DNA from: Lama guanicoe
Lineage: Eukaryota
Assembly: GCA_013239625.1 (NCBI GenBank)
Contig: MU053606.1
Span: 62,001-126,000 of the forward strand
DNA: 64,000 nucleotides
Direction of reading: 5' to 3'
The position numbers were made by a program, and so were the translations under genes. Position 1 is the first letter of the stretch. Every line of letters starts with the position of its first letter. The notes below the pieces were generated by a model. That model saw nothing but the letters and a program-made list of their open reading frames with translations, made no database searches and was not told the origin of the DNA. Positions 1,835 through 50,589 of this stretch are shown piece by piece.

Positions 1835-4684
1835 ATGCCCATCAGCAGCATCTGAGTGTCACTGAAAGCAGAAAGCCAGATGAATGGAGGCAGAGGTGGT
1901 TGGAGGAGCTACGTTAACTGATCTTCAAGTGAGTTAGGGTAACAGCTTCCTGAAATCCTCCCCACCCCTCCTGATGAGCCAGGTGTCTGGCATTTCTCTG
2001 GAAATCACTAGGCGCAGCCTGGAACTCAAAAGTAAAAATTTAAACAGCATTCAGGCAGCAAAGGGACTGGCAGGACGTGTTGGACAAAAGTAGGTCAGAA
2101 TCAACAAGGAATGAGGAGGGGATAGAACGTGTGCTGAGGACCTTGACTTAAGTGGTGAATTGTCTGTGTTGAGGAATCTGTGTCAGTATGAGTAGATGGA
2201 TTGGTGTGGACTAAAATGGTGGCCATTGTTCAGATAAGTGTGTGATTTGGACTATATTTATTAGAGAAGGGTTTTTTTTTCCCCTTCAACATTGACCATT
2301 TCTAGGGAGCAGAAAAATAATCTGCCACACAACATCTAAGTGCAAAAGAGATGCTACAGGATGATGGTGGTATGAAAAATTTCAGTTTTGCAGTTCCAAG
2401 ATTTCCTTAATGAGGTTCACAGTAGTAGGTACTTAAAATAAAATAAGGTACTTATAATAAAGACATCATCATATGTACATATCCTTAAAGATACACATAT
2501 GGTGCTATAAGTGGGCCTGAAATGTATTCTGCATTCTAAAATACAATGAAATAAAATCAGTAGCTCAATATGCCTGTTGGCTCTATAAACATGATATAGC
2601 TCATGATCACAGAAAGCAAGATCAGCTAGGAAATTTGAGATTTGTCTTTTCCAGTGTCAAAGTTAATATTTTTTGCTTTACTTAAAAAGCATTTTTTTAA
2701 TTAGGGCTGTCAGCATCCATTGGTATATGGGGCTCACTAGATGTGTTCAGATGTTCTAGACAGTGAATCAGAGTAAAGACTGAGGTTTAGACAGTAGTTA
2801 AATGCCTCACCCGTGTGATCAGCATCCACAAACTGTTATACTGAAAATCCTTACAAGTGAGAACTTCATTAAAGCAACGAAAAGTGAGGGAAAAAATAGC
2901 CACAGACTAGTGGAAGTTTTGTAACGTGTAAATATGACAAAGGACTATTCATGAGCATATTTTTTAAAACCCTTATACTTTAATAAGAAAAACAACAAAC
3001 TGGTGAGACGGAGAAGATGGCGGAGTAGAAGGACGCTCATAAGTCACCCTCTCTCACACATACACCAAGACCGACATCTACAGACCCACTCGGCCAACCA
3101 GAGCACCTGCGAACTCCAACAGAACATCACCCTCTTCAAAAGATAAAGACGCCAAAAATCTGGTAGGAGAAAAGGATAAAAGAAAGAACAAAAGACAAAG
3201 CAGCGTGGGACGGGTCCAGCGGGGAGAGAGCGGCAAAGGAGGACTGGCGCTCACTCGCTGGGTCTCCCCTCTCCAACTGAGAGGCCAGCTGGACGGAGAG
3301 GGAGCCTCCGAGGCTCGGATCTGTACAGAGCAGCCCGTGTCTGACAGAACTAAGTTAAACGGGCACAGAGTGTCCCCCCCCCGACATCCAGCCTGACATG
3401 CGGGCCAGCAGCGGCAGGCAGGGCCAGGCTGCACAAGCCGGGTGGAGGACTGGGGCAGCTGCACAGAGGCAGCCCCAGGGGACTGCAAGGGGATGGGCAC
3501 CGTGGCTGTGGGTATACAGGACAGAACAACCTTGGCCCTCCATAAAACAGCAAGGTTGATGTGCTCTCAGGGGAAGGGTGCATACCCCCATCTCTGAAAA
3601 CTCGTGGAAACTTTTCAGCGGAAGAGAGGCGGGGCTCATGCACAGCCGCCATATCCTCTGGTGCTTAGCACCCAGGCGGGGGCAGGGGTGAAACCTGCAT
3701 CAGCACCGAAGGGCTTAGAGCCTCAAAGGCCAGACTGAGACTGGCCTACAGCCCGGGGCAGATAGGATCCTTCCAGCCTGGTCTCTCAGAGAACTTGCTC
3801 CACAAAGACAAACAAGGAGATGGGTTTTGGCTTGGAGCAGGGATGAGGCTGTCCCTCGGTCTTCCCCAAGCCCACCCGCGGAGCACGGACCAGGGCGGAG
3901 CACGCAGCTGCACAGAGCAGCAGTGCTACCGGCAGCGCAGGCAGAGGGAGAGCGGTCCCCCGCCTGTCGGGCAGGAACACAGCCCCTGACCGAGGCGCTG
4001 GGAGGGTGCACGACCAGCCCTCCTGCCTGGCCAGTCTGCAACATCTGACTGCGGAATCCGGAGGGGCAGTGATCCGCCCACCCACAGCAGTGGAGAGCTG
4101 CAGCTGACCCCGTGTTAGAAGGAGGCGCGATCTGCTTGCCGACAGGTGCTGTGAGCAGCACAGAAGAGGGCTCCAATGGAGAGCCTCTGAAAACAAGCTG
4201 AGCTTCCAAAGCAGGACGAAGACAGAAAGATTTCACAATAAAAGCACACAGACTCCAGGAGAACACCGACAACCACTTTTTATTTATTTATTTTTTAAAA
4301 ATCTATTTTCACCTGTTCTATTTTCTATTACTCTCTTAATTTTTACTTCTTAATTCATTTCTATTTCTCTTGGGTTTTGATGTCCTGTTATTGATTAGAC
4401 ACAGGTTTCAAATACATCTATTCATCTCCCCACCACTTTTTTTTAAAAGGTTTTAAAAGGACGTCTCAACCCAATTAATACTCTGCTTCAACTCGCTCTT
4501 CAAATATTCATATACACTATTTTCAAACCCTCTTTCTCCCTTTTTTTAAAAATCTTTCTCTCTCTCTCTCTTATTTTTTTCTTTTTTTTCCAAAGTTCTA
4601 TTCCTAAATAGGCATTAGATAGACAAAATCCTTAAGATCCAAAATAGACAACTGATACTCCATAAACCACAGTGCCAGAGAGGT

Positions 4685-5587
4685 ATGAGCAAGATGAAGA
4701 AGCAGAGAAACCTTTCCCAATTAAAACAACAAGAGGAATCCCCTGAAAGAAAGATCAATGAAATAGACATTGATATCCTACAAGATCAAGATTTCAAAAA
4801 AGGACTGATCAAATTGCTGAAGGAATTAAAAGAGATAGCGTTTAGAGATATAAATTATGTCAAAAATGAAATTGAAGCTATAAAGAAGAGCCAAGTAGAA
4901 TGGGTAAACACATTGACAGAGATGAGGAATTATCTAATAGCTGCGCAAAGCTGACTAGATATTGCAGAGGAATGAAATAGTGATCTAGAAGACAGGGCAA
5001 TAGAAAGCACCCATTCAGAAGAACTACAAGATAAGTAAATAAAAAATAACAAAAATAGCATAAGGGACCTATGGGATATTACAAAGCATCCCAATCTTCT
5101 CATAATAGGGGTCGCAGAAGGGGAAGAAGGATCAAAGGGTATTGAAAAGGTTTTTGAAGAAATCATGACTGAAAACTTCCCAAACTTAAAGAAGGAATCA
5201 GATATACAAGTACAGGAAGCTCAGAGGGTCCCAAACAGGAAGAACCCAAATAGACCCACACCAAGACATATCATAATCAAGATGGCCAGAGTCAAGGATA
5301 AAGAAATGATTCTAAAGGCAGCAAGAGAAAAGCAAAGAGTGAACTACAAGGGAACCCCCATAAGGCTCTCAGCTGATTTCTCTACACAAACACTACAGGC
5401 CAGAAGGGAGTGGCAAGATATATTCAAAGCCCTGAATGAAAAAAAGATGCAGCCTAGGATACTTTATCCAGCAAGGCTATCCTTTAGGATAGAAGGAGAA
5501 ATAAAGAGTTTCACAGACAAAAAAAAGCTGCAGGAGTTTAGCAACACTAAACCCATGCTAAAAGAAATATTGAAAGGGCTATTCTAA
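4685..5587 (+). pseudogene. L1 ORF1p (RNA-binding protein), disrupted by in-frame stops
   Basis: ORFs 4685-4954 and 5165-5587 are in one frame; motifs ENFPNL, QEAQRVP, PRHIIIK, IRLSADFS, ARREW, YPARLSF. Confidence 0.93.
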
Positions 5588-5985
5588 ATAGAAAAGCAGC
5601 AGGATGCTACAGAAATGAGAAACGTACAACTGGAAAGGTGATAACTCATGAATTACAAATAAAGAAAACACGAAATTATAAAAGAAGACATACAAATCAC
5701 TGAGAGTGGGAGAGGGAGGCAGGGAAATATAGAATTTTTTTTCTTTCTTTTTTTAAATTTTTTTAACAGTAGGATGGGTTTGAGATCATGTTATTATCAG
5801 TTTATTAAAAACGGGTATAGGTTAATAGATTTACAAAAAAGGGTAACCACAAGTCAAAAATTTACAAGGGAGTCACAAAAATTAAATAAAATCCATGATA
5901 ATACAAAGGAAAATTACCAAACCACAAAAGGAAGAAGAAAGGAACAAAGAGGATATACCAATTCAACTGCAAAGATAAGTTCAAA

Positions 5986-8900
5986 ATGGCAATAAACACA
6001 CATCTATCATTAATTACTGTAAATGTTAATGGACTAAATGCTCCAGTCAAAAGACATAGAGTGGCAGACTGGATAATAAAGCAAGAACCTTCAATATGCT
6101 GCATACAAGAGACCCACTTTAGGGAGAAGGACACATATAGATTGAGAGTGAAAGGATGGAAAAGGATATTCCATGCAAATGGAAAAGCCAAAAAAGCAGG
6201 TGTTGCAGTACTGATTTCAGACAAAATAGACTTTAAAACAAAGGCCATAAAGAAAGATAAAGAAGGATATTTTATAATGATTAAAGGAGTGATACAAGAT
6301 GAAGATATTACACTCGTTAATATATATGCACCCAATATAGGAGCACCTAAGTACATACAAGAATTACTAACAGAGATAAAGGGGGATATTGATGGGAATA
6401 CAATCATAGTTGGAGATTTTAACACTGCATTAACATCACTAGACAGATCTTCCAGACAGAAAATAAACAAGGCATCAGAGAAATTAAATACTACAATAGA
6501 AAAACTAGATTTGGTGGATATTTTCAGAGCATTTCACACCCCAAAATAGGATATACATTCTTTTGAAGTGCACATGGAACATTTTCCAAGATCGATCATG
6601 TACTTGGGCACAAAAGAAACCTCAACAAATTTAAGAAGATAGAAATTATCTCAAGCATCTTTACTGACCACAATGCCATGAAACTGGAAATCAACAACAG
6701 AGAAACAAAGTAGAAAAAAAGGAAAGCATGGAGATTAAACAATATGTTATTGAAAAAACAATGGATCAATGGGGAAATTAAAGCTGAAATTAAAAAATAC
6801 ATTGCGACAAATGATAATGAACGCAGAACCACTCAAAACATATGGGGCACAGCAAAGGAAGTGCTAAGAGAGAAGTTTATAGCGATACAGGCCTTCCTCA
6901 AAAAAGAAGAAAAATCTCAAATAAACAAGTTAACCCACCACCTGAATGAATTAGAAAACGAAGAACAAAAAGCCCCAAAAAGAAGCAGAAGGAAGGAAAA
7001 ATAAAGATCAGAGAGGAATTAAATACAATAGAGATTAACAAGACCATAGAAAAAATCAACCAAACCAAAAGCTGGTTTTTTGAAAAAGTAAATAAAATCG
7101 ACAAACCTCTGGCCAAACTCACAAAGAAGAAAAAAGAGAGAGCACAAATTAGCAAAATAAGAAAGGAAAATGGAGAAATTACAACAAACAAAATAGAAAT
7201 ACAGAATATCATACGAGAATATTATGAAAAACTATATGGAACCAAACTGGATAACCTAGAGGAGATGGACAAATTTCTGGAAACATACTGTCCACCAAAA
7301 CTGAATCAAGAAGAAACTGAACACTTGAACAATCCGATCACTAGAAAGGAAATAGAAATAGCAATTAAAAACCTCCCTACAAATAAAAGTCCAGGGCCGG
7401 ATGGCTTCACCGTAGAATTCTACCAAACATACAAAGAAGAACTCATACTAGTCTTTCTCAAACTCTTCCAGACGATTGAAAAGGAGGGAATACTCCCAAA
7501 CTCATTCTATGAAGCCACCATCACCCTGATACCAAAACCAGGCAAAGACACTACAAAAAAAGAGAATTATAGGCCAATATCACTGATGAACATAGACGCC
7601 AAAATCCTCACCAAAATTTTAGCAAATAAAATCCAACAGCACATAAAAAAGCTTATACATCATGAGCAAGTGGGGTTCATCTCAGGGACACAAGGCTGGT
7701 TCAACATACACAAATCAATGAATGTAATACATCACATCAACAAGGGAAACGACAAAAACCACATGATCATCTCAATCGATGCAGAAAAAGCATTTGATAA
7801 AATTCAACATCCATTTATGATAAAATTTCTCACCATAGTGGGTATAGAGGGAACATATCTCAACATAGTAAAGGCTATATATGACAAACTTACAGCCAGC
7901 ATAGTACTCAATGGTGAAAAACTCAAAAGCTTCCCACTAAAATCTGGGACAAGACAAGGATGTCCACTATCACCCCTCCTATTCAACATAGTCGTGGAAG
8001 TCCTAGCCACAGCAGTTAGGTAAGAGAAATAAATAAAAGGGATCCAAATTGGAAAAGAAGAGGTAAAAGTGTAATTATATGCTGATGACATGCTACTATA
8101 TATAGAAAACCCTAAAAGGTCCACACAAAAGCTACTAGAGCTGATTGAAGAATTCAGCAAGGTAGCAGGTTACAAAATTAACGTTCAAAAATCAATTGCA
8201 TTTCTTTACACTAATGATAAATCAACAGAAAAAAGAAAGTAAAGAAACAATCCCCTTTAAAAAAGCATCCAAAGTAATAAAATATCTGGAAATAAATCTC
8301 ACCAAGAAGGTGAAAGAATTATACACAGAAAACTATAAACCATTGATGAAGGAAATTAAAGAAGACTTTAAAAAATGGAAAGATATTCCATGCTCCTGGA
8401 TTGGAAGAATCAATATTGATAAAATGGTCACACTGCCCAAGGCAATCTACAGATTTAATGCAATCCCTATCCAATTACCCAGGACATATTTCACAGAACT
8501 AGAACAAACAATAATAAAATTTATATGGAACCATCAAAGAACAAGAATTGCCAAATCATTACTGAAGAGAAAGAAAGAGGCTGGAGGAATAACTCTCCCA
8601 GACTTCAGACAATACTATAGAGCTACAGTCATCAAGACAGCATGGTATTGGTACCAAAACAGACATATAGACAAATGGAACAGAATAGAGAGCCCAGAAA
8701 TGAACCCACAAANNNNNNNNNNNNNNNNNNNNNNNNNNNNNNNNNNNNNNNNNNNNNNNNNNNNNNNNNNNNNNNNNNNNNNNNNNNNNNNNNNNNNNNN
8801 NNNNNNNNNNNNNNNNNNNNNNNNNNNNNNNNNNNNNNNNNNNNNNNNNNNNNNNNNNNNNNNNNNNNNNNNNNNNNNNNNNNNNNNNNNNNNNNNNNNN

Positions 8901-15447: not shown

Positions 15448-18400
15448 AGCTGAGCCCACCTATGGAGCAACTGGCACAGCACTGACTGTGGCACCTGGAG
15501 TGGGAGTGACCCACTCACCCACCGTGAAGGAGAGCAGCACCTGAACCAGTGTTGGAGGGGCATGATCTTCTTGCCGACGGACACTGTGAGCAGCACAGAT
15601 GAGGGGGCCAACAGAGCAAGCTGAGTTCATGAAACAGGGTGAAGACACAAAGACCTCTCAATAAAACCATTAAGAGCATTCAGTCTCTAGGAGAACACAT
15701 CTTTGTTTTTTAAATCTTTTTATATCTGTTTTGTTTTCTATTACCTTTTCAATCTTTACTTTTCAAACAGTTCTATATGTTTACAGTTCTCATTTCATTT
15801 TTAATTCTCTTGGTTTTGATCTGCTATTGATTATTCACAGGTTTCAAAAATTGTTTTGATTTTTTTCTTCTTTTTATTAAGGTTTTTAAAAGACATCTCA
15901 ACTTGATTCCTAATCTGCTTCAACTTGATCTTCTATTATTGATTATACACTGTTTTCAAACCTTCTTTTCCTCCATTCTTTTAAAATTCTCTCTGTCTCT
16001 CGTTTTTAAGTTTTATCCCTGCATAGGCTTTAGATAGATAAATAGACTCCTTTAAGGACCACAATAGATAACTGATATTCCTTAAGCCACAGTGCCAGAG
16101 AGATATGACCAGTATGAGGAAGCAGAGGCAGTACTCCCAATTAAAAGAGCAAGAGAAATCCCCTGAAAGAATGATCAATGAAATAGACATTGATGGCCTA
16201 CTACATCAAGATTTCAAAAAAGAAGTGATCAAATTACTGAAGGAACTAAAAGAGATAGTGTTTAGAGACATAAAATATGTCAAAAACAAAATAGAAGTTA
16301 TATAGAAGAGCCAAGTAGAATTGGTAAATTCATTGGCTGGAATGAGATCTGACCTAAAGGTTGTACAAAGCAGGCTATATAATGCAGAGGAACGAATAAG
16401 TGACCTAGAAGACAGGACAACAGAAAGCACCCAATCAGAACAGCTGAGAGAAAAACAAAGAAAAAACAATGAAAACAATATAAGGAACCTGTGGGATAAT
16501 ATAAAGCATGCCAATCTATGCATAATAGGGGTTCCAGAAGGGGAAGAAAGAACAAAGGGGTTGGAAAAGGTATTTAAAGAAATCATGACTGAAAACTTCC
16601 CAAACATAAAGGAGGAATCAGACACCCAAGTACAGGAGGCTCAGAAGTTCCCAAACCGGAAGAGCACAAAAAGACCCACACCAAGACATCATAATCAAGA
16701 TGGCCAGACTGAAGGATAAAGAAATGATCCTAAAGGCAGCAAGAGAAAAATAAAGAGTGATTTACAAGAGAAGGCTCTCAGCTGATTTCTCTACACAGAC
16801 TACAGGCCAGAAGGGAGTGGCAAGATATATTCAAAGTCCTGAATGAAGAAAAAGATGCAGCCTAGGATACTTTCTCCGCCAAGGCTATCCTTTAGGATAG
16901 AAGAAGAAATAAAGAATTTCACAGAGAAGTGAAAACTAAAAGACTTTAGCAACACTACACCCATGCTAAAAGAAATATTGAAAGGTCTATTCTAAGTAGA
17001 AAAGAAGCATGATGCTACAGAAATGAGAACTCACAACTGGAAAGGTGATAACTAACATGAATTACAAATAGAATAAACATGAAATTGTAAAAGAAGATAT
17101 CTAAACCATTGAATGGGAGAGGGAAGCAAGAAAATATAGAGTATTATTTTCTTTCTTCTTTTTTTCTTAAACTTTTTGTTCTCAGTAGGATGGGTTTGAG
17201 ATTACATTACTATCTGTTTAGTACACACAGTTACAGTAATTGGTTAACAGACTTGCAAAAAAGTGTAACTACAAGCCAAAAACTTACAAGTGAGTCACAA
17301 AAACTAAATACAATCCAAGATAACACAAAGGAAATTTACCATACCACAAAAGGAAGAAGAAAGGAACAATGAAGAAATACCAAATCAACTGCAAAAATAA
17401 GTTCAAAATAACAATAAACACTCATCTATTATTAATTACTGTAAATGTTAATGGACTAAAAGCTCCAGTCAAAAGACAGACTGGCAGACTGGATAATAAA
17501 GCAAGAACATTCAATACACTGCATACAAGAGACACACTTTAGGGAGAAGTACACATATACATTGAGAGTGAATGGATGGAAAAGGATATTCCATGCAAAT
17601 GGAAATGCCAATAAAGCAGGTGTAGCAGTACTGATTTCAGACAAAATAGACTTTAAAACAAGGGCCATAAAGAAAGATAAATAAAGACATTTTATAATGA
17701 TTAAAGGAGCAATGCAAGATGAGGATATTACAATCATTAATATATATGCACCCAACATGAGCACCTAAGTACATAAAACAACTAACAGAGATAAAGGAGG
17801 AAATTGATGGGAATACAATCACTGTCAGAAATTTTAACACCACATTAACATCACTAGATAGATCTTCCAGACAGAAAATAAGTAAAGCAACTGAGAAATT
17901 AAATGATACAAAAGAAAAATTAGATTTAGTGGATATTTTCAGAGCATTACAACCCCCCAAAATAGGATATACATTCTTTTCAAGTGCAAGTGGAACATTT
18001 TCTAGAATTGATCATGTACTTGGTCACAAAAGAAGCCTCAACAATTTTAAGAAGATAGAAATTATCTCAAGCATCTTTACTGACAACAATGCCATTGAAA
18101 CTAGAAATCAACTACAGAGAAACAAAGGAGAAAAAAAAGGAAAGCATAGAGATTAAACAACATGCTATTAAAAAACCAATGGGTTGATGATGAAATCAAA
18201 GTTTAAATTAAAGAATGCCTTGAGACAAATGAAAATGAAAACACAATCACACAAAACTTATGGGATGAAGCAAAAGCAGTGCTAAGAGGAAAGTTTAGGG
18301 TGATACAGGCTTTCCTCAAAAAAGAAGAACAATATCAAATAAACAATCTAACCCACCAGCTAAAAGGACTAGAAACAGAAGAGCAAAAACACCCAAAAGT

Positions 18401-21058
18401 CAGCAGAAGGAAGGAAATAAAAAAGATCAGGGAGGAAATAAATAAAATAAAGACTAAAAAAAATAAAGAAAATAATTAATCAAACCAAAAGCTAGATTTT
18501 TGAAAGAGTAAATAAAATCGACAAACCTCTGGCAAAACTCATAAAGAAGAAATAAGAGAGAGCACAAATTTGAAAAATAAGAAAGGAAAATGGAGAAATG
18601 ATAACAAATAACATAGAAATACAGAATATCATATGAGGATATCATGAAAAACTACATGGAAAAAAAATGGATAACCTAGAGGAGATGGACAAGTTTCTGG
18701 AAACATACAGTCCACCAAGACTGAATCAAGAAGAAACTGACCACTTGAACAAACCAATCACTAGGATTGAAATCGAATTAACAATAAAAAAAAACCTCCC
18801 TAGAAATAAAAGTCCAGGATTGGACAGCTTCACCAGGGAATTCTACCAAACATACAAAGAAAAACTCATACCCGTCCTTCCCAAACTCTTCCAGAAGATT
18901 GAAAAGAAGGAATATTCCCAAACTCATTCTATGAAGCCACCATCACCCTGATACACAAACCAGGCAAAGACACCAACAAAAAAGAGAATTTCAGACCAAT
19001 ATCACTGATGAACACAGATGCAAAAAGTCCTTACCAAAATACTAGCAAATAGAATCCAACAGCACATAAAAAAGATTATACATCATGCTCAAATGGGGTT
19101 CATCTCAGGGACACAAGGGTGGTTCAACATATACAAATCAATCAATGTAATACTTCACATCAACAAGATAAAAGACAAAAACCACATGATCATCTCAATA
19201 GATGCAGAAAAGCTTTTGATAAAATTGAACACCCATTTATGATAAAAATTCTCACCCAAGTGAGTATTGAGGGAACATATCTCAACATCATAAAAGCTAT
19301 ATATGACAAACCTACAGCCAGCATAACACTAAACGGTGAAAAACTCAAAAGCTTCCCACTAAAATCTGGGACAAGACAAGTATGCCCACTATCACCACTC
19401 CTATTCAACATAGTCTTAGAAGTCCTGGCCACAACAATCAGGCAAGTAAGAGAAATGAAAGGGGTCTAAATTGGAAAAGAAGTGGTAAAAGTGTCACTAT
19501 ATGCAGATGACATGATACTATATGTAGAAAACCCTAAAAGTTCCACACAAAAACTACTAAAGCTGATCGAAGAATTCAGCAATGTAGCAGGTTACAAGAT
19601 TAATGTTCAAAAATCAGTTGCATTTCTTTACACTAATGATGAATCAACAGAAAAAGAGTAAAGAAAAACACCCCTTTAAAATATCGCCCAAAAAAAAAAA
19701 ATANNNNNNNNNNNNNNNNNNNNNNNNNNNNNNNNNNNNNNNNNNNNNNNNNNNNNNNNNNNNNNNNNNNNNNNNNNNNNNNNNNNNNNNNNNNNNNNNN
19801 NNNNNNNNNNNNNNNNNNNNNNNNNNNNNNNNNNNNNNNNNNNNNNNNNNNNNNNNNNNNNNNNNNNNNNNNNNNNNNNNNNNNNNNNNNNNNNNNNNNN
19901 NNNNNNNNNNNNNNNNNNNNNNNNNNNNNNNNNNNNNNNNNNNNNNNNNNNNNNNNNNNNNNNNNNNNNNNNNNNNNNNNNNNNNNNNNNNNNNNNNNNN
20001 NNNNNNNNNNNNNNNNNNNNNNNNNNNNNNNNNNNNNNNNNNNNNNNNNNNNNNNNNNNNNNNNNNNNNNNNNNNNNNNNNNNNNNNNNNNNNNNNNNNN
20101 NNNNNNNNNNNNNNNNNNNNNNNNNNNNNNNNNNNNNNNNNNNNNNNNNNNNNNNNNNNNNNNNNNNNNNNNNNNNNNNNNNNNNNNNNNNNNNNNNNNN
20201 NNNNNNNNNNNNNNNNNNNNNNNNNNNNNNNNNNNNNNNNNNNNNNNNNNNNNNNNNNNNNNNNNNNNNNNNNNNNNNNNNNNNNNNNNNNNNNNNNNNN
20301 NNNNNNNNNNNNNNNNNNNNNNNNNNNNNNNNNNNNNNNNNNNNNNNNNNNNNNNNNNNNNNNNNNNNNNNNNNNNNNNNNNNNNNNNNNNNNNNNNNNN
20401 NNNNNNNNNNNNNNNNNNNNNNNNNNNNNNNNNNNNNNNNNNNNNNNNNNNNNNNNNNNNNNNNNNNNNNNNNNNNNNNNNNNNNNNNNNNNNNNNNNNN
20501 NAAAATGGGCAGAAGACCTAAACAAGCAATTCTCCAAGGAAGACATACAAATGATCAATGGGCACATGAAAAAATGCTCAATATCACTAATTATCAGAGA
20601 AATGCAAATCAAAACTACAATGAGGTATCACCTAAAACCAGTCAGAACAGCCATCATTCAAAAATCCAGAAATGACAAATGCTGGAGAGGCTGTGGAGAA
20701 ATGGGAACCCCTACACTTCTGGTGGGAATGCAGTTTGATTCAGCCACTGTGGAAAACAGTATTGAGTTTCCTCAAAAGACTAGGAATAGACTTGCCATAA
20801 GACCCAGGAATCCTGCTCCTGGGCATATATCCTGAAGGAACCCTACTTCAGGATGACACCTGCACCCCAATGTTCATAGCAGCACTATTTACAATAGCCA
20901 AAACATGGAGACAGCCTAAATGTCCATCAACGGATGACTGGTTAAAGAAGTGGTGTATTAATACAATGGAATACTACTCGGCCATAAATACTGACAATAT
21001 AGGGCCATTTGCAGCAACATGGATGTTCCTGGAGAATGTCATTCTAAGTTAAGTAAGT
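15448..21058 (+). mobile_element. Young LINE-1 closely related to 3003-9838, truncated in the 5' UTR and before the 3' UTR
   Basis: ORF1 remnant at about 16105-16996, ORF2 remnant from about 17409 with start codon lost and many frameshifts; similarity stops abruptly at attctaagttaagtaag with no 3' UTR or poly(A). Confidence 0.93.
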
Positions 21059-39259: not shown

Positions 39260-40400
39260 ACAAGACATGATAAATCTCCCAAAAGAAAACATAGGCAAAA
39301 CATTATCTGACATAAAACTTAGCAACGTTCTCCTAGGGCAATCCACCCAGGCAATGGAAATAATAGAAAAAAATAAACAAATGGGACGTAATTAAACTCA
39401 TAAGTTTCTTCACAGCAAAGGCAACCATAAGTAAAACAAAACAACAACCTATGAATGGGAGAAAATATTTGCAAATGATATGACTAACATGATATGACTC
39501 AAAGCCTTAATTTTCAGAATATATAAACAGCTCATACAATTTAATAACAAAAAAACAAACAACTCAATCCAAAAATAGGCAGAAGACCTAAATAAGCATT
39601 TCTCCAGTGAGTACACAAATGGCCAATAGGCACATGAAAAAATGCTCAATATCACTAATAAACAGAGAAATGTAAATCAAAACTACAATGAGGTATCAGC
39701 TCACAACAGTCAGAATGGCCATTGCTCAGAAGTTCATGAATGATAAATGCTAGAGAGGCTGTAGAGGGAAGGGTACCCTCTTACTCTGCTGGTGGGAATC
39801 CAGTTTGGTGTAGTAATTATGGAAAACATGGAAATCCCTCAAAAAACTAAAAGTAGACTTACCCTATGACCCAGCAATCCCACTTCTGGGTATATAACTG
39901 GAAGGAACTCCAATGTGAAAAGATACCTGCACCCCAGTATTCATAGCACCACTGTATACAATAGCCAAGACATGGAGGCAAGCTAAATGTAGCAATAGAT
40001 GACTGGATAAAGAAGTTGTGGTATATTTATACACTGGAATACTATCCTACCATGAAAAGGACAAAATATAACCATTTGCGGCAACATGGATGGAGCTAGA
40101 GATCGTCATTCTAAGTGAAAGCAGCCAGAAACAGAAAAATACCAAATGATACCACTCATACGTGCAATCTAAAAATAGAGAGAAAAAGACTCTGAACTCA
40201 TCTACAAAACAGAAACAGACTTGCAGACTTAATAAACAATCTTAAGGTTACCAGGGAAAGGGGATGGGAAGGGATAAATTTGGGAGTTTGAGATTTACAA
40301 ATGTTAGCCACTATATATGAAAATAGATTTTAAATAAAGTTTCTTCTGTATAGCACAGAAACTTATGTTCATTATCCAGCAATAGCCTATAATGAAAAAG
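39260..40400 (+). mobile_element. LINE-1 ORF2 3' part and 3' UTR, cut before the poly(A)
   Basis: gaaaacataggcaaaac, gcagaagacctaaataag, gacccagcaatcccacttctggg; ends at cctataatgaaaaag, whereas the related UTR at 1596-1834 continues about 120 bp further. Confidence 0.9.
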
Positions 40401-40506
40401 CCGACACAGCCACCAACTGAGGAAGCAAGAGAAGAAAGGAGAGTTAGTTATGCTGAGCTAGAGCCCACTTCTAAAATCCTTGTCAGTCACTGAGGCTGCC
40501 CCGAGT

Positions 40507-41316
40507 ACACTGAGCCCTCCTCCCAGGGACAGGCTGACATGACATGCATCCTGCAAACCTGGGGCAGCAGAGGCCGTCCCCAGGTCTGGCCCTGGGGGAG
40601 ATGGGAGCAAGTCCACCCACTCCCCCTGGGGCAGCACCCCTCCCCACAGGCCCTTCCTCCTGACTGCACCATGCCTGCCTCTCAGGAACCCACTGACTTG
40701 AAAACAAGTGATCCACAAAACTGGGGCAGCGGCAGGGAGATGGGCAGCGACCTGCCAAACTGCTTGATTTGCCCCCATCTCTCCCATGGCCTGTCCAGGG
40801 CTCGGCCTCTACTGCTCCAGGCATGGTCCCCAGGTCAGCCTGCTCCCAGGAGGAGGGCGCAGTGTGGTCGAAGGCAGTGGCGGGTTATGGGGTCTGCCCA
40901 TGGGAGCCCGTGGATTTACTTCAAACTTCCCAGCGCATGGCCTGAGCTTGGCCTCTGCTGCCCCAGGTTCGTGGAACTCAGGTTACAGGTCAGCCTGGTC
41001 CTGGAAGGCGTGTGCTGTGCTGTCAGGGAATGGCGGCGGCTGCGATGGCGGGATTAGGGCTGCCTTGTGAGAGCACGGGGGTTGCGACCATTTCCCGCTG
41101 CTGCTGCAGCCATCCCAGGACACTGATCACACCGAGCCCACCTCCCAGGAGCAGACTGACCTTTAACCTGAGTCCCACGAACCTGGGGCTTTAGAGGCTG
41201 CCCCCAAGGTCAGGCCATGGGAAAGATGGGAGCAAATCCAGGGGCTCTCATGGGGCAGCCCCCATTCCATCCGAGGCACCGCAACCGCACCGCACCCGCC
41301 TCCCAGGAGCAGGCCA
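40507..41316. repeat. Array of about six degenerate GC-rich ~90-140-bp units in mixed orientation (+,+,-,-,+,+)
   Basis: Shared core cctcccaggagcaggctgacct...acctggggcagcagaggcc...ggccatggg.agatgggagcaaatcca at about 40507, 40663, 40868(-), 41022(-), 41127 and 41278 (partial). Confidence 0.8.
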
Positions 41317-41790
41317 TTGTCTGAGGGCCAGTCTGAGATGCTCCGGAGCCGTCCGGCACCCTCCCACCACCCGGGGCTGTACCTGCTCTCCTAAACCCGG
41401 GTATAAGCGGCGGCAAAAACACGGGGTTCAGGAACTACTAATAGCGGGGTTACCACGAACCACAGCAGTGGCTGGGACCCTCCGTATGGACGCGTGGCTT
41501 GGACCTCACCTCCGCACCCCTCCCTGGGCGCCTCCCCAGCCACACAGCCCAGGTGTCCCCTGCCGGCTCCCCGAACAGCATGCCCCCACCAGTGCCCCCT
41601 GAACTGCCCAGCAGTGGCAGCCGAGCCATGGGCTAGTGGCGGCCCAGACCCCAGGCCCTGTTCCCCTTCCAGGAGCTGGTCCAGGAGCAACCGGCTCCCG
41701 CCAGCTTCCACGTGTTCTGGGCGGGTTCCAACATCCACGCGTCTGTCCGTCTGTGAGTGAGCACCCTTCCTCCTCCCGCCCACAGCGCAA
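41270..41790 (+). promoter_or_regulatory. CpG-rich putative promoter/first-exon segment
   Basis: High CpG density relative to flanks, TATAAG at 41402-41407, consensus donor gtgagt at 41753. Confidence 0.35.
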
Positions 41791-43098
41791 ACTGCTCAGG
41801 TGCTTCTGCTTTACCAGCCCTTGCCACTGGGGCTGGGAGGAGCCAGAAGGGGCTCCTCCTGCTCATCCCACTGGGTCTCCATCCCCAGAGCCCTCACCCT
41901 GCCACTGACTGGGTCCTGGCACTGAACTAGAACCATGATTGCCCTGGGCCAGGCCACACCCGGCCAGCCCCACTTCCCCTGCTCACCTTCCCCTCCCTGT
42001 TACTACCCTCCCACCCCTGGCCAGGCTCAGTCTCCCACCAGACCTTCAAGACAGGGCTCCTTCTTCTCACACTGAGGTCCCTGCCCTGACACTCCATCCT
42101 GCTAGGTCCTAACCTATGGCCCCTTCACCCACAAGCTTACCCCTCATGCTGCAGCACAGGACCCCCAACATCCTGAAATTGTCCCCCTCACCTCTCAGCC
42201 AGGTCAGTTCCACTCTGAGCGGGCCCCACACCCCTCAACCTGTACCCCCTCACCATGGGATCCCCTTCGCTCTGAGTGCACCCCTACTCTGAGCTCACTC
42301 CCTCACCCCTCATCCTGTGGTTGGTGTGGGGAAATCCGGGCTCCAGTAATGATGACTATTGCCACCAGTGGGGGATCCAGCCTAGTGTGCACCTTCATAG
42401 TTAATGTCTGAGTCTGCAGGGTGAGGCAGGCTTGGCTGAAGGCAGTTCCAATTCCCGCCCTGGCACCCTGATCCCCGCACCCTGTGCCTCAACTGACCCG
42501 ATAGGTCAGGGTGATCCCAGGCTGCCAGCCACTGGCCTGTGGGCCTTGGGTGGTTGATTGTCCTGATGGTGATCTCGTCCCGTAGGGTGGAGGCACTGGG
42601 CACCAGGATCTTTGGGGTGGGGGAGTTCAGAGGGTGCACTTGAGCCCGGGGTAGACAGCAGATGGTGGGCTGTGTGCATGGGGCTGTGTGTGTGGCCTGG
42701 GCTCAGCCCTGGTGGGTGCAGGGACCTTGTTCATTCACACCAGGCCAGAGGGAAGAGGGACGGGAGCTTTTAAAGCATCAAAGCTAGGAAGCCAAGGCTG
42801 GAGAGCAAAGTAGGAAGGTGCACTGGCCAGGCCACCATGGAGCCTGCCGCGACGCTGGTCCCTTGCATCAGGGGAGACTGGCAGTTGACTGGCCAATGAG
42901 ACAACCCATGCTGTCATGTAGTTTACAGGCAATTGAAGGGATTTTGAAAGGTAAATTTAATCCAATAACTGTCACTTTCTCTGCAGGAGATTAGGTCCAA
43001 AGTCATGGTGAATCTGGCAGAGATCCTGCCTGAACTCCAGCCTGGGACAGTGGAGGACCCACCCAGGAATCATCCTCTTAGTTCTCACCAAAAGTCAC

Positions 43099-43516
43099 TG
43101 TAATAGAGAAGAACAAATCTGACTCCATATTGGATCTGTTCCTTTTCCTTTAACCATGTTTTCTAGGCTTAGTCTTGCTAGCTCTGCACCTTTTGTAAAA
43201 CAATGTTGCCTTTAGCCTGAAATAAACAGAAGAGCCTATTCTCAAAACTCTGATCTTTAAGGATATTAACACTTTTGCACTCCTATAAAGATAACAAGTT
43301 GCAGAATAGAAAAAGTTTTTTTGTTGCAGGTTTTACAGGAACACCATGATCTGACCCACGTGGACAGCTGCAAAGGATTCCAAGAACAAAGAAATCCTAA
43401 ACCAAGAAGTTTGCAACAACCAACCACTGCCCCTCCCCTTTTTAGTAGAAAAGGAGCCTGAAGTCTGACTTGGGGAAGATGGTTCTCCAAGGTATTAGTC
43501 TGCCATTATCTTGGTC
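43099..43516 (+). mobile_element. ERV1-class LTR (MER41-like, cetartiodactyl), 3' truncated
   Basis: Begins tgtaatagagaagaacaaatctgactccatattggatctgtt; family name recalled from memory. Confidence 0.7.
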
Positions 43517-43802
43517 TGCAGCTGTCTATGTAGACCAGGTCATAGTGCCTCTGTAAAACCTCTAACAAAACAAAAGTTATTTTCTATTCTGCAACTTGTT
43601 GTCTTTATATAAGTGCAAAGGTGGTAATATCCTTAAAGATCAGAGCCTTGAAAATAGGCTCTCCTGTATATTTCAGGCTAAAGGCAACATTGTTTTACAA
43701 AAGGTGTAGAGCTAGTAAGTCTAAGCCTAGAAAAGAGGGCACAGGGTTAAAGCCAAAAGAACAGATATTCTATGGAGTCAGATTTTTATCTTTTCTATTA
43801 TA
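43517..43802 (-). mobile_element. Second partial copy of the same LTR in inverted orientation
   Basis: Reverse complement aligns to 43099-43372, e.g. caccttttgtaaaacaatgttgcctttagcctgaaat versus atttcaggctaaaggcaacattgttttacaaaaggtg. Confidence 0.88.
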
Positions 43803-44812
43803 TTCTATTCTATTTTTGTTTTAAGTTTATAAGAATAAAGTTTGGCCTTTTCCCATTTTCATTCTGCAGTTTTAAGGAGCATTAAGTGCATTCGCAATGC
43901 TGTGAGACTGACACCACTGATTTCAGACTATTTCCTTCCTCAAAGTAAAAGCTTTGAATACAAAGCACACCCCACATCCTACCTCCATCAGCCCGTGACA
44001 AGCCCTAATCCCCTTTCTCTCTCTATGTCTTTACCTATCCTGGAGGTTCCCTATCAATGAAATCATATAAAAGGTGGCTTTTTTTTGTTTGTTTGCCCAC
44101 ATATCTTAAGTATGGAAGGGTGAAATTTTTGTTCGTTTGTTTTCACGTGAATTAGCACTTTTGCATTTTGAGAGGAAAATCCAGATGGATTAAAGATGAG
44201 ACATACCAAATAAAGCCCTTTTGGTAACTCTGTCCATAATCTTGTGGTAGGCACTGCTGTTCTAAGTGTGAAACCAGAGCCAGAAGGGAGATGCTTAGCT
44301 CTTCTTGTGGCAAAATAAAACCAAACAAAAGCAGAAAACAAAGGCCAAGAAAAACAGCTGGAAATACAAACCACAGCCTGGAAAAAGCTTTCCTCATGAC
44401 CCAAGGTCAGAGAAAAGCACCCTGCGGTCACCTCTTGAAGCCCAGTGTTCTGAAAAGAAACAAAACACACACAGGCAGTTCCAATGAGAGGCAGTGCAGG
44501 TGGCCAGTGTGTGCTAGAGATGCTCGACCTCTCAGGTGAGGACACAGGCAGATGGACAGACTTCAGAGACAGCATTGGCCACTATCACACTGGCAGGTCT
44601 TTAGTCCATTGACAACCAACCCTGGTGACAACGTGAGCAGGCAGAGGCCCCAGGAGGTCCCCTGGAGGGAAGAGCAAATGGACGCACCTCTCTGGCAGAA
44701 CAAGGTGCAGGATACATCAAAGTGCCACAGGTGCATCCCTTCCCTAGCAATGCTGAGACTTAGAGAAGATCCCAACAAAGTTCTTGCACAATTTTCAAAG
44801 ATAATTTTTCTT
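43803..44812 (+). repeat. Diverged ~1-kb duplicate of 47440-48465 (3' end and flank of the RALGDS-derived gene unit)
   Basis: Collinear blocks, e.g. ggcagttccaatgagaggca(g/a)tgcaggtggccagtgtgtg near 44474 and 48126; AATAAA at 43834 matches AATAAA at 47471. Confidence 0.9.
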
Positions 44813-44885
44813 CAGTAACATGAATTCAAAGTAATCAATATGTCATCAAGGGATTTTCAGAATTGACCTGCCCTGGGGCTGAACA

Positions 44886-45046
44886 ATACACACACATAAA
44901 TACACACTTATACACATAAATATATACACACATACATACAGGAAAAGAGACAGACAGACTGAAACACAGAGAAGCAGGGGGAGACAGAGAAACAGAGAGT
45001 GAGACAAGTCAGAGAGAGAGGCACTGAGAGACAGAGACAGAGAGAA
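44886..45046. repeat. Degenerate (CA/TA)n then (GA)n low-complexity tract
   Basis: Read directly. Confidence 0.8.
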
Positions 45047-45945
45047 GGAACACTGGAGCTGGTAATGAGTGGAACTCTTGCACATTTTCACAAGTCAATC
45101 TACATGTCAGAACCTGGTCCCAAAGTCCATCCACCCTCCAGGAGAGGGTGTGGGGATCACACAATGGAGTGGGAACAGAAGGCAAAAAATAGGAAGACAT
45201 TGTGGGGCAGCCCACCACAGAGGCCGTGATGGGACACTGGGCCTGTATGTCAATATGACAGAATGACCTAGGAGGTTGTATGCCAGAGTGGACGATGTCA
45301 GAATTGTATTTAATTTCAGTCTCATGACAGGGAGCTGAGAAGCAAGCAGCAAGGAAAGTGACTTTCTCCAGACCTCAGGGCAGACCCAGGTCTGTGTGGC
45401 ATGTGCTCTGCACTCTGCCAGCCCTCTGTGGGGTCCTTCCTTTGCTGAGTCTGTGCACAAGCTCCCTGTGATGCCAGCTCATGGGGGTGACAGATGCAGT
45501 AGATGTTTCTAGGTCTAGAGACAGGATGACTTCTCTAGGAAGCAGAGGCCAGAATGATACCCACTGTGCCGATGGGGGATTGGGGAGACCCTGACAGGCA
45601 TGTGGCTTGTCCAGGGTGATAGCACTGCTGAGTGGGGGGAGCCACGTCTGAACCCAGCTGTGTCTTCAGAGCTGTGGCACTGGCTGCATCCAGTCCTCTC
45701 CAGGGCTATGAGGGTCTGAGTTGATGTCACCATGTGTGGGCATGGCATGGAGTGAGAAATGAGAGATCAGCAGCCCAGAAAGGCCGTTGGGGAGCTTTGT
45801 GTCAGGAGGAAGCTTGGATAAGTGGACCCCAGGATGTGACCTCACTTCCCTGGCAATAGAGCCCAACAGAACTTGGAACCGAAGTCACCAGGCACCCACT
45901 CTGTAGAGAAGTCCCTACTCAGCTCACTTGGTTGGAGACAGAGGC

Positions 45946-47476
45946 ATGTTCTGCTGCATCCCAATATCCCGAGGCTACAGCCCCCAGAAAGTCCACAGCA
46001 AGGGGCTATACCAACGCTGCTGGTGCTGGGTCACGTCTCACCCAAGGTGCCTCTGGCCTTTTGGCCAGAGAGACCCAAAGGTAACACAGGGAGGCCCAGG
46101 GCAGGCCCACCCAGGCTGGGCCACCACTCAGATCCCACCCAGGTAGCCCCATGACCTCGTCCTGTCAGGTGGAGGTGGAGCAGTCATGTTGGGATGGGTT
46201 TCTGACTCAAGCAAGAGCAGGTCAGAGGCCTGGGGGGCCAGTCACATCCACAGCCCAGGTCAAAGCTGGCTGGATGGGGTGAGGAGAGCCAGGGAAGGGT
46301 CCTGCTGCCCAAGGTGAGCCCATGCTTTCTGGGTATGTGTTTTCCCTTCTGGGTGTCTGAGCTGAACAAGGTCCCAGTCTGATCTGGCAGCAGAGTTTCG
46401 AGTGAACAGAATCAGTACTGTTCCTGGCCGGGCAGGGCTCTGAGACTTCCAGGCCAGGTCAGCTGCTGGTCACTGTCATTGCAGAGCCAGATACCATATA
46501 TTGAACAGAAGCTGATGAATAAGAACACCAACGCCCCCTCCTCAAGTGAAGGGCTGGTGTGCCACTCTTCTGAGGGCCAACGCAGGCTCCAGGTAGGTCT
46601 GGATATGGAGGGGTCCCCACCACCATGGCCCAGAAATCAGTGGGGCGGGCCTCCGACCCAGACATCACCCAGGGCTCTCCCCAGGGACCTGCCTGGGGCT
46701 GGCGGGTAGCCCAGCACACCCAGCTCTGACCTGGAGCACCGTGCCCACCTTGCTGCAAGTCTGGTGGAGGACCAGGAGCCCCTGAAGCAGAGACTGAAGG
46801 TCAGAAAGACAGGGTGGTGCATGTGTGTAGGTGAGGGAGGGGTGAAGGCTGGGCCACACAGGGAGGTGTACCCAGAGGCTACTGTTTGGACCAGAGCAAA
46901 GAATGGCCACAGACCACCTGTCTGGAAAAATTCAGTCACAGAACACATCCTGTGGGCACTTTCTGGGTGGGAGCTGTCTGGAAAGCTCTAGGAAGGTTTC
47001 TGTCCTTGAAGAGGCACATGGAAAGGGAGGCAGGAGGGCACATTTTTCCCCTCTCACAGCATGAGCTCTTCCACAAGACTTAAAACTCTCTCCACATCCA
47101 ATAGTTACAGAGGAGGCAGGGGCAGGGGAAGATGTCAGAGACCAAATAAAGGACGATCTGGATCCAGCAAGAGACCCCGAGCTCCCTCCTGCCACTCCTG
47201 CAGCTCCTCCTGAACCTGCATCTGCACCTGGACTGCTGGGCAACGGAGAGCCAGTTCAGGCATCACCACCCCCTGGGGCAAAGCCCCCTCTGCACCCACC
47301 CACACCTTCTTCTCCAAAATGTTCTCCAAAATCCCACCATCAGTCCCCCTGTTCCCCCTCCCAAATGACGTCCCTTCAGCTGGAGATGTTTTTGTTTGGT
47401 TTTCTTTAGTTTCCTTTGTTTGTTTCACATCATTTATGGCATCCTTTATTTTACTTTTCAGAGTTTCATTAATAAA
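45946..47476 (+). pseudogene. RALGDS-derived truncated gene (Ral-GDS-like family), 4 coding exons, disrupted
   Basis: Exons 45946-46080 (MFCCIPISRG...LWPFGQRDPK, gt), 46485-46592 (SQIPYIEQKLMN...GQRRLQ; compare RALGDS SSTQEIGEELIN...GQRWLG), 46685-46799 (PSSDLEHRAHL..EDQEP/EAETE; compare PGSDLERRAHLLLAQLEHSEPIEAEPE) and 47060 onward (Pro/Ala/Glu-rich, AATAAA at 47471); all introns GT-AG; frameshifts and TGA stops in exons 3-4. Confidence 0.78.
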
Positions 47477-49099
47477 ATATAGACTTTTCCCTTTTAAATT
47501 GTGCAATTCAGGAGCATTAGGGGCATTCACAATGTTGTGAGACCATCACTACCATCTAGTTTCACACTATTTCTTTCCTCAAAGTGAAACCATGGATCCA
47601 GAGCGTGCACACCCCTCCTTCCTCACCCAGCCCCTGACAACCCAAAGTCCTGTTTCTCTCTGCGTGTCTTTACCTCTCCTGGGTGTTCCCTGTCAATGAA
47701 ACTTTAAAAAAGGTGTTTTTTTGTCCCTGCCCACATGTTTTAAGCTGGGGCTGGGGATTTTTTTTTGTTTTCACTTGAAACAGCATTTTTATTATTTTAA
47801 GGGGATATCCAGGGGGGTTAAAGATGTGATATACAAAATGAAGCCCTTTTAGTAACTCTGTGCATAATCTCAGGGTAGACACTGCTTTTTCCCCTGTGAC
47901 ACCAGAGCCAGAAGACAGAAGGTAGATCCTTAGCTCTTCCTCTGGCAAAAACAAAACCAAACAAATCAAAAAAAATTAGCAAAAGCCCAGAAAAACTGCT
48001 TGAAAGACAAATCACAACCTGGAAAAAGCATTCCTCATAACCCAAGGTTGGAGAAAGGTTTCCCATCCCTGTAGTCCAAAATCCTTTCAAAACCCAGTGT
48101 TCTAAACAGAAACAGAACAGACATGGGCAGTTCCAATGAGAGGCAATGCAGGTGGCCAGTGTGTGTTAGAGATGCTTGACCTCTCTGGTGAGAACACAGG
48201 CAGACGGAAATACTGCAGAGACAGCACCGGTCACCATCATACTGACAGGTCTTTAGCCAGGTGACAACCAGCCCTGTGACAATGTAAGCAGGCAGAGGCT
48301 CCAGCAGATCCCCTGGAGGGAAGAGTGAAGGGACTCTCCTCTTCAGGAATACAGGGTGCAGGACACATCAAAGGGCCACAGATGTATCTCTTCCCCAGAA
48401 GTTCTGATCCTTAGAGTTCATCCCACTAAAATCCTTACACACCTATTCAAAGATGCCTTTTCAAGGGTGTTCATCTCAGCACTGGTTGAAACAGTTGGAA
48501 TTAAAGCAAAACTAATGTTGATGGACAGGAGATGGGGTCCACTCATTCTGGTTCATGTGGATGAATGAATGCTGTGCAGTCGGAAAAGTGGGTGCCTGGT
48601 CTCAACCCAATGTCAAGGGAGGCCTCAAGGTGGAAGTATGCAGACCCACTGTGTGCATCCAGGGTCCCATCTGCATGACCACATAAGTGTGAAATCAATA
48701 TAGATGTAAATTGATCTGATTGTGAGTGTGTAAGAGACAGAGATGGAGAGAGACATACTGAGAGACCCAGAGACTGAGACATAAGCACCAAATCATTCAT
48801 GACAGACACCGCTGTGGGTGGGAATTACAAATCTCTTCTCTTTTAGGCAATATTTCAATTTTTTGTAGTGTGTCTGTATTACTCTACTAATTCTAAAAGG
48901 ATTAAAATCCTATGTTAATGTGACCCATTCATTACTCATTTATGGAGTAATTAAAGTACATTAATCCTATTTTTAAAAGAATTGAAAGCCTTCTCAGGAC
49001 TCAGTTCCATGTCAGCTCCGTGGCAACAGAGTTTCTCCAGGAGGTCGTGTCTCTTCTGAATCAGCATCCAATAGAGGTGAGGAAGAAGTCCCAGACTTG

Positions 49100-49370: not shown

Positions 49371-50053
49371 GAAAGTCAGATGGAACCCACGGTTAATACA
49401 AAAGCACTTTAAGCTGAAAATACCTGAGATTCAATAGAAGTAGAAGAAAACCTGTTATGGTAGCCAACTCTCTCCTCTCCCTTTGCCCTATTAAGTTAGG
49501 TTAATAAAAAAGCCTTTAACTTTCACCATTTAACATGGTAGTTACTTTTCTGGTTGGCTCCTGCCTGTGTATAAATAAATTGTTTCTCTCGTTCATCTCT
49601 CCTTTACTTCTGTGGGCTTTTTGGGAGGGACTCTGGATGATGGGGACCTGCTTTTTTCTCACCTTCCTTAGTGACATCTTTTCTCCATGGTGAAGTGCTT
49701 AAAAAAAAAGAAAAGGCTCATTGGTTTTGGGTTAGATTTGGAACATGTATACCTTTGAAGACCCCCTGGAGGAACAAGGGGGTTCAATACTGCTGGGAGA
49801 ATTTACTGGTCGTCTTGTCCAAATGCCTAACAAGACGCTATTTGCAAGGTTTTTTTTTTTAAAGATTCTTACCCTAACACAAAAACCCTATCTAAACCTC
49901 ATGGATAATCAAATAGAAAGTAAAAAGGAGAATCATGTCTGGCCTAAGAACACTTCCTTAACAAAATGGAAGGACAGAATCAGACGCAGAGCAAAAATTA
50001 AAATCGATTTATACCATCAACCCTCCCACTCTTTTGTACACTGTCCTCATGTA

Positions 50054-50073
50054 ATCTGCCAGATGGCGCCCTG
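50054..50073 (+). promoter_or_regulatory. Candidate CTCF site
   Basis: ctgccagatggcgccc resembles the CTCF core CCASYAGRKGGCR; motif only. Confidence 0.35.
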
Positions 50074-50589
50074 GAGAAGGCCCTTTGCCGGGAACTCGTG
50101 CTCATTTTCAGAGCTCAGCCAAGCGGGAGGTTGGTCCCCAGGGCCTGAGAGGGGCTATTTGTGAAATCTTCTCTGCTGAGACCCACCAGACTGAAGGGAA
50201 CTGTGTGCTCTGAGGGAGAGAGAGCACACCGAGCCTCTGTGGAGGCATGTCTGAGATCATCCCAAAGGCACACAGCTCTAACTGTGGACACGGGAATTTT
50301 TGATTGGCATCTTAGTTGGAAATCTCCTCCTAGATAGAAAGAAGCAGATTCAAGATGTTGTGATTGGATGGGCAGGTCGGCCTCTCAAATTTGTCGATGA
50401 GGAGGACACACAATTCTCTGCAGAATTAGGAATACCCATCCCTGCTCTGCTGACTCCATCTACAGAGAAACAGAGACGCGGCTCTAGGGGGAATTCAACA
50501 CCCACCAACCCTTCTTACCGACATCAACGTCCCCACTTTATTCTCCTGTCAGGTCTCTGCACAAAAACTGTGGCTCAGCCCCAAATATC

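Follow-up and report, generated by a model that had tools for sequence, protein, structure and literature searches.

A decayed three-exon gene copy in a guanaco repeat unit and its probable place in a camelid multi-copy family

The gene remnant at positions 45946–47540 of the window, the whole 64-kb stretch of Lama guanicoe DNA analysed here, is real, but it consists of three exons instead of the four given in a preliminary description. The copy is dead, as indicated by a premature TAG at 46707 and three frameshifts, one of which lies within the tail. The explanation that we favor, at a probability of roughly 70%, is that the locus represents a decayed unit of about 3.65 kb from a camelid multi-copy family of three-exon genes of RALGDS-like origin, the intact copies of which would encode membrane-tethered proteins. 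The locus itself is ordinary; what is notable about the family is its link to a satellite, its fused exon and the conserved module in exon 1.

All elements of the gene lie on the forward strand, with GT-AG pairs at 46081/46484, 46593/46684 and 46800/47104. Exon 1 (45946–46080, 135 nt) begins with the ATG at 45946 and encodes 45 aa with an MFCC start; it is basic and Trp-rich, has stayed open in the window copy and is the sole part common to the non-camelid proteins described below. Intron 1 (46081–46484, 404 nt, GT-AG, phase 0) is followed by exon 2 (46485–46799, 315 nt), which unites in a single exon what had been taken for exon 2, intron 2 and exon 3. The segments of 108 nt and 115 nt and the SDLEHRAHL motif are present as previously reported, so that the segment lengths stand while their status as separate exons does not. 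Within this exon, the TAG (46707–46709) is the first lesion, after 119 aa, and one base is absent relative to the family at about 46783 (46781–46785). Intron 2 (46800–47104, 305 nt, GT-AG, phase 1) precedes the coding part of exon 3 (47105–47482), in which an acidic, Pro/Ala/Glu-rich region, its Pro/Ala repeat shorter than that of alpaca by about 55–70 aa, leads into the tail, with a stop at 47480 in the tail frame of the family. A further frameshift lies ahead of the tail (47364–47371, about 47366–47369), and another at about 47401–47404 breaks the T-rich tract for the hydrophobic tail (47385–47470, 58% T). The candidate polyadenylation signal AATAAA (47471–47476) opens the 3′ flank (47471–48462). 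The earlier coordinates of exon 1, the splice dinucleotides, the composition of the last exon and the AATAAA at 47471 were all confirmed. No second copy of the exons was found within the 64-kb window, and a Pfam scan of the window gene pieces gave no match.

Intact relatives of this copy are present in alpaca. A search with exon 1 among 1.84 billion representatives yielded five matches, of which two are alpaca proteins (62% identity; E 8e-11 and 1e-10), one is from Tamandua and two are further proteins; a word-based search with exon 1 gave no candidate. Using residues 1–140 of alpaca P0002 against proteins of 172–550 aa, we obtained seven clusters from 538 candidates, all of them alpaca. These comprise 20 distinct sequences of 227–381 aa, each with the MFCC start, under at least 35 RefSeq accessions and on contigs of seven sizes, all being automatic predictions in which isoforms and loci are counted together. 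The remnant stands above chance because its exon 1 matches at E 8e-11 and all of its parts align in order: exons 1–3 and the tail are collinear with the family, with 146–156 identities over about 250 aligned residues. Proteins listed in alpaca RefSeq as 'uncharacterized protein' (XP_072821441.1, XP_072796879.1 and XP_072816817.1) belong to the same family as the window copy, from which they differ by open frames and a longer Pro/Ala repeat. The anticipated product of ~230 aa does not describe them, since the predicted intact members reach 227–381 aa with the fused middle exon.

No Pfam family rose above chance in the seven alpaca sequences scanned, and neither RasGEF (CDC25), REM (RasGEF_N) nor RA domains were found in these seven, in two Tamandua and three further proteins, or in the window pieces. 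The scanned members thereby differ from the RALGDS/RGL Ral GEFs, which carry REM, CDC25 and RA domains, and, lacking CDC25, cannot act as Ral GEFs. The expectation of an uncharacterized multi-copy family with intact paralogues devoid of a GEF domain was borne out at the level of predicted proteins. AlphaFold2 models of ten members depict a disordered body (mean pLDDT 49) with a short helix at 21–29 and a confident 30-residue C-terminal helix at 283–312. The name 'Skin secretory protein xP2-like' given to these proteins in UniRef is most likely due to nothing more than their Pro/Ala composition. An ESM Atlas search gave no usable match for P0002 or P0005, a metagenome and viral contig search no relative of the family, and a PDB search by sequence a single chance match at E 1.6. 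A literature search, of a kind that misses most subscription journals, retrieved no description of the camelid family, nor is the family mentioned in the accessible main text of an alpaca CNV preprint; it is already in public annotation, but unstudied. One predicted alpaca isoform, P0003 (XP_072821442.1), appears to use a portion of exon 2 again in a different frame and to translate the Pro/Ala repeat into a long hydrophobic run rich in Leu and Gln, possibly as a result of annotation across tandem units.

The main rival to a membrane-tethered function is that the whole camelid family is a neutral passenger riding a repeat amplicon, with open frames reflecting recent amplification, transcripts amounting to noise and the tail being a by-product of T-rich DNA. 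We lean against this explanation while regarding it as a serious one. It is opposed by the splicing of both introns in paralogue RNA contigs. Four of the 24 listed runs were aligned to the locus at 80% likeness, and the other 20 do not enter the evidence; in one X8 contig exon 1 runs in frame into exon 2, X8 and X9 contigs join exon 2 to exon 3, and X15 shows unspliced ends of intron 2. The spliced contigs, which stem from a 'reproductive system' run and a second RNA run, are paralogues and not the window copy, and such contigs give no level, strand or stage and may include DNA.

Neutrality of the family is further opposed by exon 1, which is open and in which 27 of 46 residues (59%) are the same in alpaca P0012 and Tamandua P0009, whereas nothing else between the two proteins aligns significantly. 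The dead copy is about as similar to other members of its family, although the lineages of camelids and anteaters separated early in placental evolution. As Tamandua is a xenarthran, exon 1 is not laurasiatherian-only; the restriction to laurasiatherians proposed earlier was rejected on this ground. Within alpaca, variable columns number 6 of 45 in exon 1 and 26 of 92 in exon 2, a borderline difference (p 0.056; p 0.33 without P0015). Exon 1 may be the part under selection. Its peptide has a Cys-Cys start, an amphipathic stretch (hydrophobic moment about 0.7) and a net charge of +10 to +11, and in this it resembles the membrane-targeting N-termini of S-acylated polybasic proteins.

The tail bears on both sides of this question. 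Eight of the 20 alpaca sequences, located on six of seven contigs, have a hydrophobic C-terminal end, and in P0015 a change of frame within the tail is followed by a return to the same C-terminus, both observations being at odds with a mere passenger. These eight are predicted to have the single hydrophobic helix at the extreme C-terminus that is typical of tail-anchored proteins; the other 12 and the window copy are not. In keeping with the neutral explanation, the tail is the most variable region of the family (35% pairwise difference), and a stop-free hydrophobic 19-mer arises in some frame in 86.5% of 5000 shuffles of its DNA and in 59 of 87 T-rich windows elsewhere in the 64-kb window. 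Being absent from 12 of 20 sequences and readily produced by T-rich DNA by chance, the tail is weak evidence of function, and hydrophobicity alone was rejected as a sign of it. The preliminary description was right in that some intact paralogues end in a hydrophobic tail, but the frame quoted for it is not that of the family. The quoted peptide (VFVWF...ILLF) is present in the window; the family frame matches only its first few residues, coinciding with the quoted frame to about 47401 and then switching to the frame reading LCLFHIIYGILY, on which account the quoted frame was rejected. Moreover, the quoted frame runs open to 47540 instead of ending just before AATAAA. We take the first ~250 nt of 47471–48462 to resemble the 3′ end of an old L1M element in antisense orientation, in which case the T-rich tract would be a decayed poly(A) tail. 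In Tamandua P0009 (XP_076985723.1), a short Phe/Tyr-rich stretch follows the Pro-rich region at residues about 240–260, at a position corresponding to that of the camelid tail but without significant alignment.

The whole gene is held by one repeat unit of about 3.65 kb (44811–48462, forward strand). Upstream of it, a copy of the 3′ flank of the gene (43834–44810, forward strand; 76% identical to 47471–48462) constitutes the tail end of a preceding unit, and in contigs of X8 and X9 position 48342 is followed, after 113 further letters, by 44805. Flank duplication and contig joint together fit a head-to-tail unit of this length. The summed contig depth of X15, 2e4–1e5 compared to 23–50 for several single contigs, is not a copy number, although it hints that copies are very numerous. 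A short gene within a head-to-tail unit of several kb, spread over chromosomes, is likewise the arrangement of the gene-carrying macrosatellites D4Z4/DUX4 and RS447/USP17, which encode characterized proteins with known germline or cleavage-stage expression; unlike in those systems, the array structure is shown here only indirectly.

On the reverse strand, 47208–47552 matches the first 400 nt of VpaSat05-8550 (GenBank QB059671), an alpaca satellite with a monomer of 8.55 kb and 63.5% GC (PMC13751797). Six words from window 47552–47208 occur in order in these 400 nt and in no other monomer row of the accessible material of that paper; the words were chosen after the likeness had been seen by eye, so that six of six confirms the likeness and is not a blind test. 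The unit in the window differs in size and composition (~3.65 kb, 51% GC), and the VpaSat05 primers have no match in the window. Six motifs from exon 1, exon 2 and the junction are absent from the first 400 nt of the satellite monomers in the supplement of PMC13751797, a result that at this length is uninformative. In the accessible parts of that paper, VpaSat05 is detected by PCR only in South American camelids and gives a FISH signal on all centromeres, with a warning by its authors of a possible artefact; RALGDS is absent from the main text, as is any gene from the passages on VpaSat05. Two points from this source agree with a neutral passenger, namely that the visible 400 nt of the VpaSat05 monomer, which by eye resemble P0014, seem to have in-frame stops in the last exon, and that such gene fragments are said there to accumulate by genomic context (PMC13751797). 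VpaSat15-3718 (3718 bp, 49.8% AT; PMC13751797) is close to the present unit in size and composition (about 3.65 kb, 49% AT), and its first 400 nt contain none of the tested words.

The window as a whole consists of mammalian DNA that contains gaps and copies of LINE-1. Two LINE-1-like copies (4045–8284 and 15482–19703) are 83% identical over 4.3 kb, and more LINE-1-like 3′ fragments lie at about 30830, 39570 and 54000. Just upstream of the repeat unit, a GC-rich region (40400–42900, 62% GC) with raised CpG, not homologous to the gene, contains decayed repeats of ~110–140 nt in both orientations (40507–40639, 40763–40869, 40902–41036 and 41125–41263). Directly before the upstream flank copy, where the gene of the preceding unit would be, stands an AT-rich imperfect palindrome of 700 bp (43101–43800, 76% self-complementary), which resembles two inverted LTR-type pieces. 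Fragments at 49380–50300 resemble, to judge by eye, a decayed endogenous retrovirus remnant. At 47467–48230, single-cell RNA reads of X24 pile up to a depth of about 31 beside A-rich stretches; as 175 of 208 are under 90% alike, they come from paralogues or old repeats elsewhere.

The window copy is very probably an unprocessed pseudogene. It shows the two traits of this class, kept introns and disabling lesions, and lacks the open reading frame of the alpaca 'xP2-like' MFCC family owing to the TAG at 46707 and the three frameshifts, in agreement with the disruption noted earlier. It is very improbable that this copy still works, either through a truncated peptide of 119 aa that covers exon 1 and the greater part of exon 2, or as a source of non-coding or small RNA. 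Such a role would be compatible with its intact exon 1, ATG and two real splice sites, and with exon 1 seeming to be the conserved module. However, the stop falls about 90 nt ahead of the last junction, a distance typical of NMD triggers, and exon 1 has diverged as expected under neutrality: it is identical to six family members at 28–31 of 45 residues, within the neutral range of 0.56–0.82 (expectation 0.68) at about 16% DNA divergence, an approximate yardstick based on one X15 contig over the region with 69 differences in about 444 nt. In addition, no long RNA contig among those aligned is near-identical to the window copy over the exons, and hardly any reads of X24 fall on the exons in the 2% that was read. 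None of the listed runs contained as much as half of the window words sampled, and the RNA records aligned to the window are mostly paralogues, so that silence of this copy is probable and its support indirect.

The least tenable alternative is the four-exon gene itself, in which 46593–46684 would be spliced out to give a ~230-aa tail-anchored protein ending in the quoted frame, and it was rejected as largely refuted by read-through, frame break and alignment scores. A translated homologue of 46593–46684 is present in 20 of 20 distinct alpaca RefSeq sequences, and frameshift-aware alignment favored the three- over the four-exon model with all three alpaca references (597 vs 516, 564 vs 496 and 555 vs 467). 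The proposed exon 2 and SDLEHRAHL share one frame in the window with the single TAG between them, whereas removal of the 92 nt puts SDLEHRAHL out of frame and ends translation at TGA 46727 after 95 aa. The two real introns are spliced in paralogue contigs, but no joint removing 46593–46684 occurs among the joints listed. In favor of splicing, 46593 (CAG/GTAGGT) is the best consensus donor of the three and the 46684 acceptor is pyrimidine-rich. As the donor is good and the absence applies to the joints listed, a minor isoform may splice this stretch, which we infer to be a relic of an ancestral intron.

Regarding ancestry, we take the start of exon 2, the SDLE-containing stretch and the Pro-rich linker to resemble RALGDS, RALGDS-like and RGL4 (Rgr) genes. 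A weak search among proteins of 399–2000 aa gave no RALGDS-type match at E<=10 among 434 candidates, and no RALGDS, RGL4 or CDRT15 sequence appeared among the matches from the PDB, longer-protein and metagenome/viral contig searches. We further assume that CDRT15 and CDRT15L2 have a similar Cys-Cys start, with a hydrophobic segment in CDRT15L2. According to the accessible part of its source, human CDRT15 spans 1190 bp, with three exons, 188 aa, a predicted plasma-membrane location and frameshifted relatives (PMC10403009), and shares with the present gene the three exons, a similar length (~1.2 kb there vs ~1.5 kb here) and the lack of a GEF domain. Compared to CDRT15 and CDRT15L2, the camelid genes differ by a fused exon 2 and a terminal tail that appear specific to their lineage. 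In the accessible parts of two further sources, rat Ralgdsl11 is listed next to Cdrt15l2 (PMC13477028), and an elephant protein of 313 aa without a RasGEF domain is a 97%-identical paralogue of an 'RGL-like' protein (PMC7806701); together with the features of CDRT15, these entries lend the proposed ancestry indirect support. The literature search, with its partial coverage of subscription journals, found no CDRT15–RALGDS link.

In the model that we propose, a RALGDS-like gene would be the source of the family, and, going by the structure of RALGDS, a deletion would have merged its second exon with part of the intron that follows and with the end of the REM region to form a single exon. The Pro-rich exon may have been truncated by T-rich DNA, which probably derives from the poly(A) end of an old L1 in antisense and would have supplied the stop, the AATAAA and the hydrophobic tail. 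Intact copies would be tethered to the cytosolic face of a membrane by the S-acylated Cys-Cys start and the basic, amphipathic peptide of exon 1, and in some subfamilies a tail anchor would be an optional addition. Copies would have spread by tandem and segmental duplication, many of them dying, the window copy among them. That intact copies encode a disordered, non-catalytic protein tethered through exon-1 S-acylation and the optional tail anchor is a tentative proposal, to which we give slightly less than even odds. A more far-reaching version appears unlikely, namely a camelid gene-bearing macrosatellite family comprising the ~3.65-kb units and the 8.55-kb VpaSat05 units, possibly in hundreds of copies. 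Here the intact copies would encode a disordered protein anchored at both ends, its transmembrane tail derived from antisense L1 poly(A), which is selected as a germline or early-embryo membrane protein, and exon 1 would be an old, placental-wide Cys-Cys/basic targeting module that has been reused in both long RALGDS-like and short CDRT15-like proteins.

That a spliced gene lies partly within a published satellite repeat of alpaca touches camelid annotation and copy-number work, and the family may offer a way into the biology of human CDRT15, a functionally uncharacterized gene. Should the intact copies prove to be translated and under selection, a signaling gene would have lost its enzymatic part and re-emerged as a disordered protein tethered to membranes, its tail anchor drawn from repeat DNA and its copies multiplied as a satellite.
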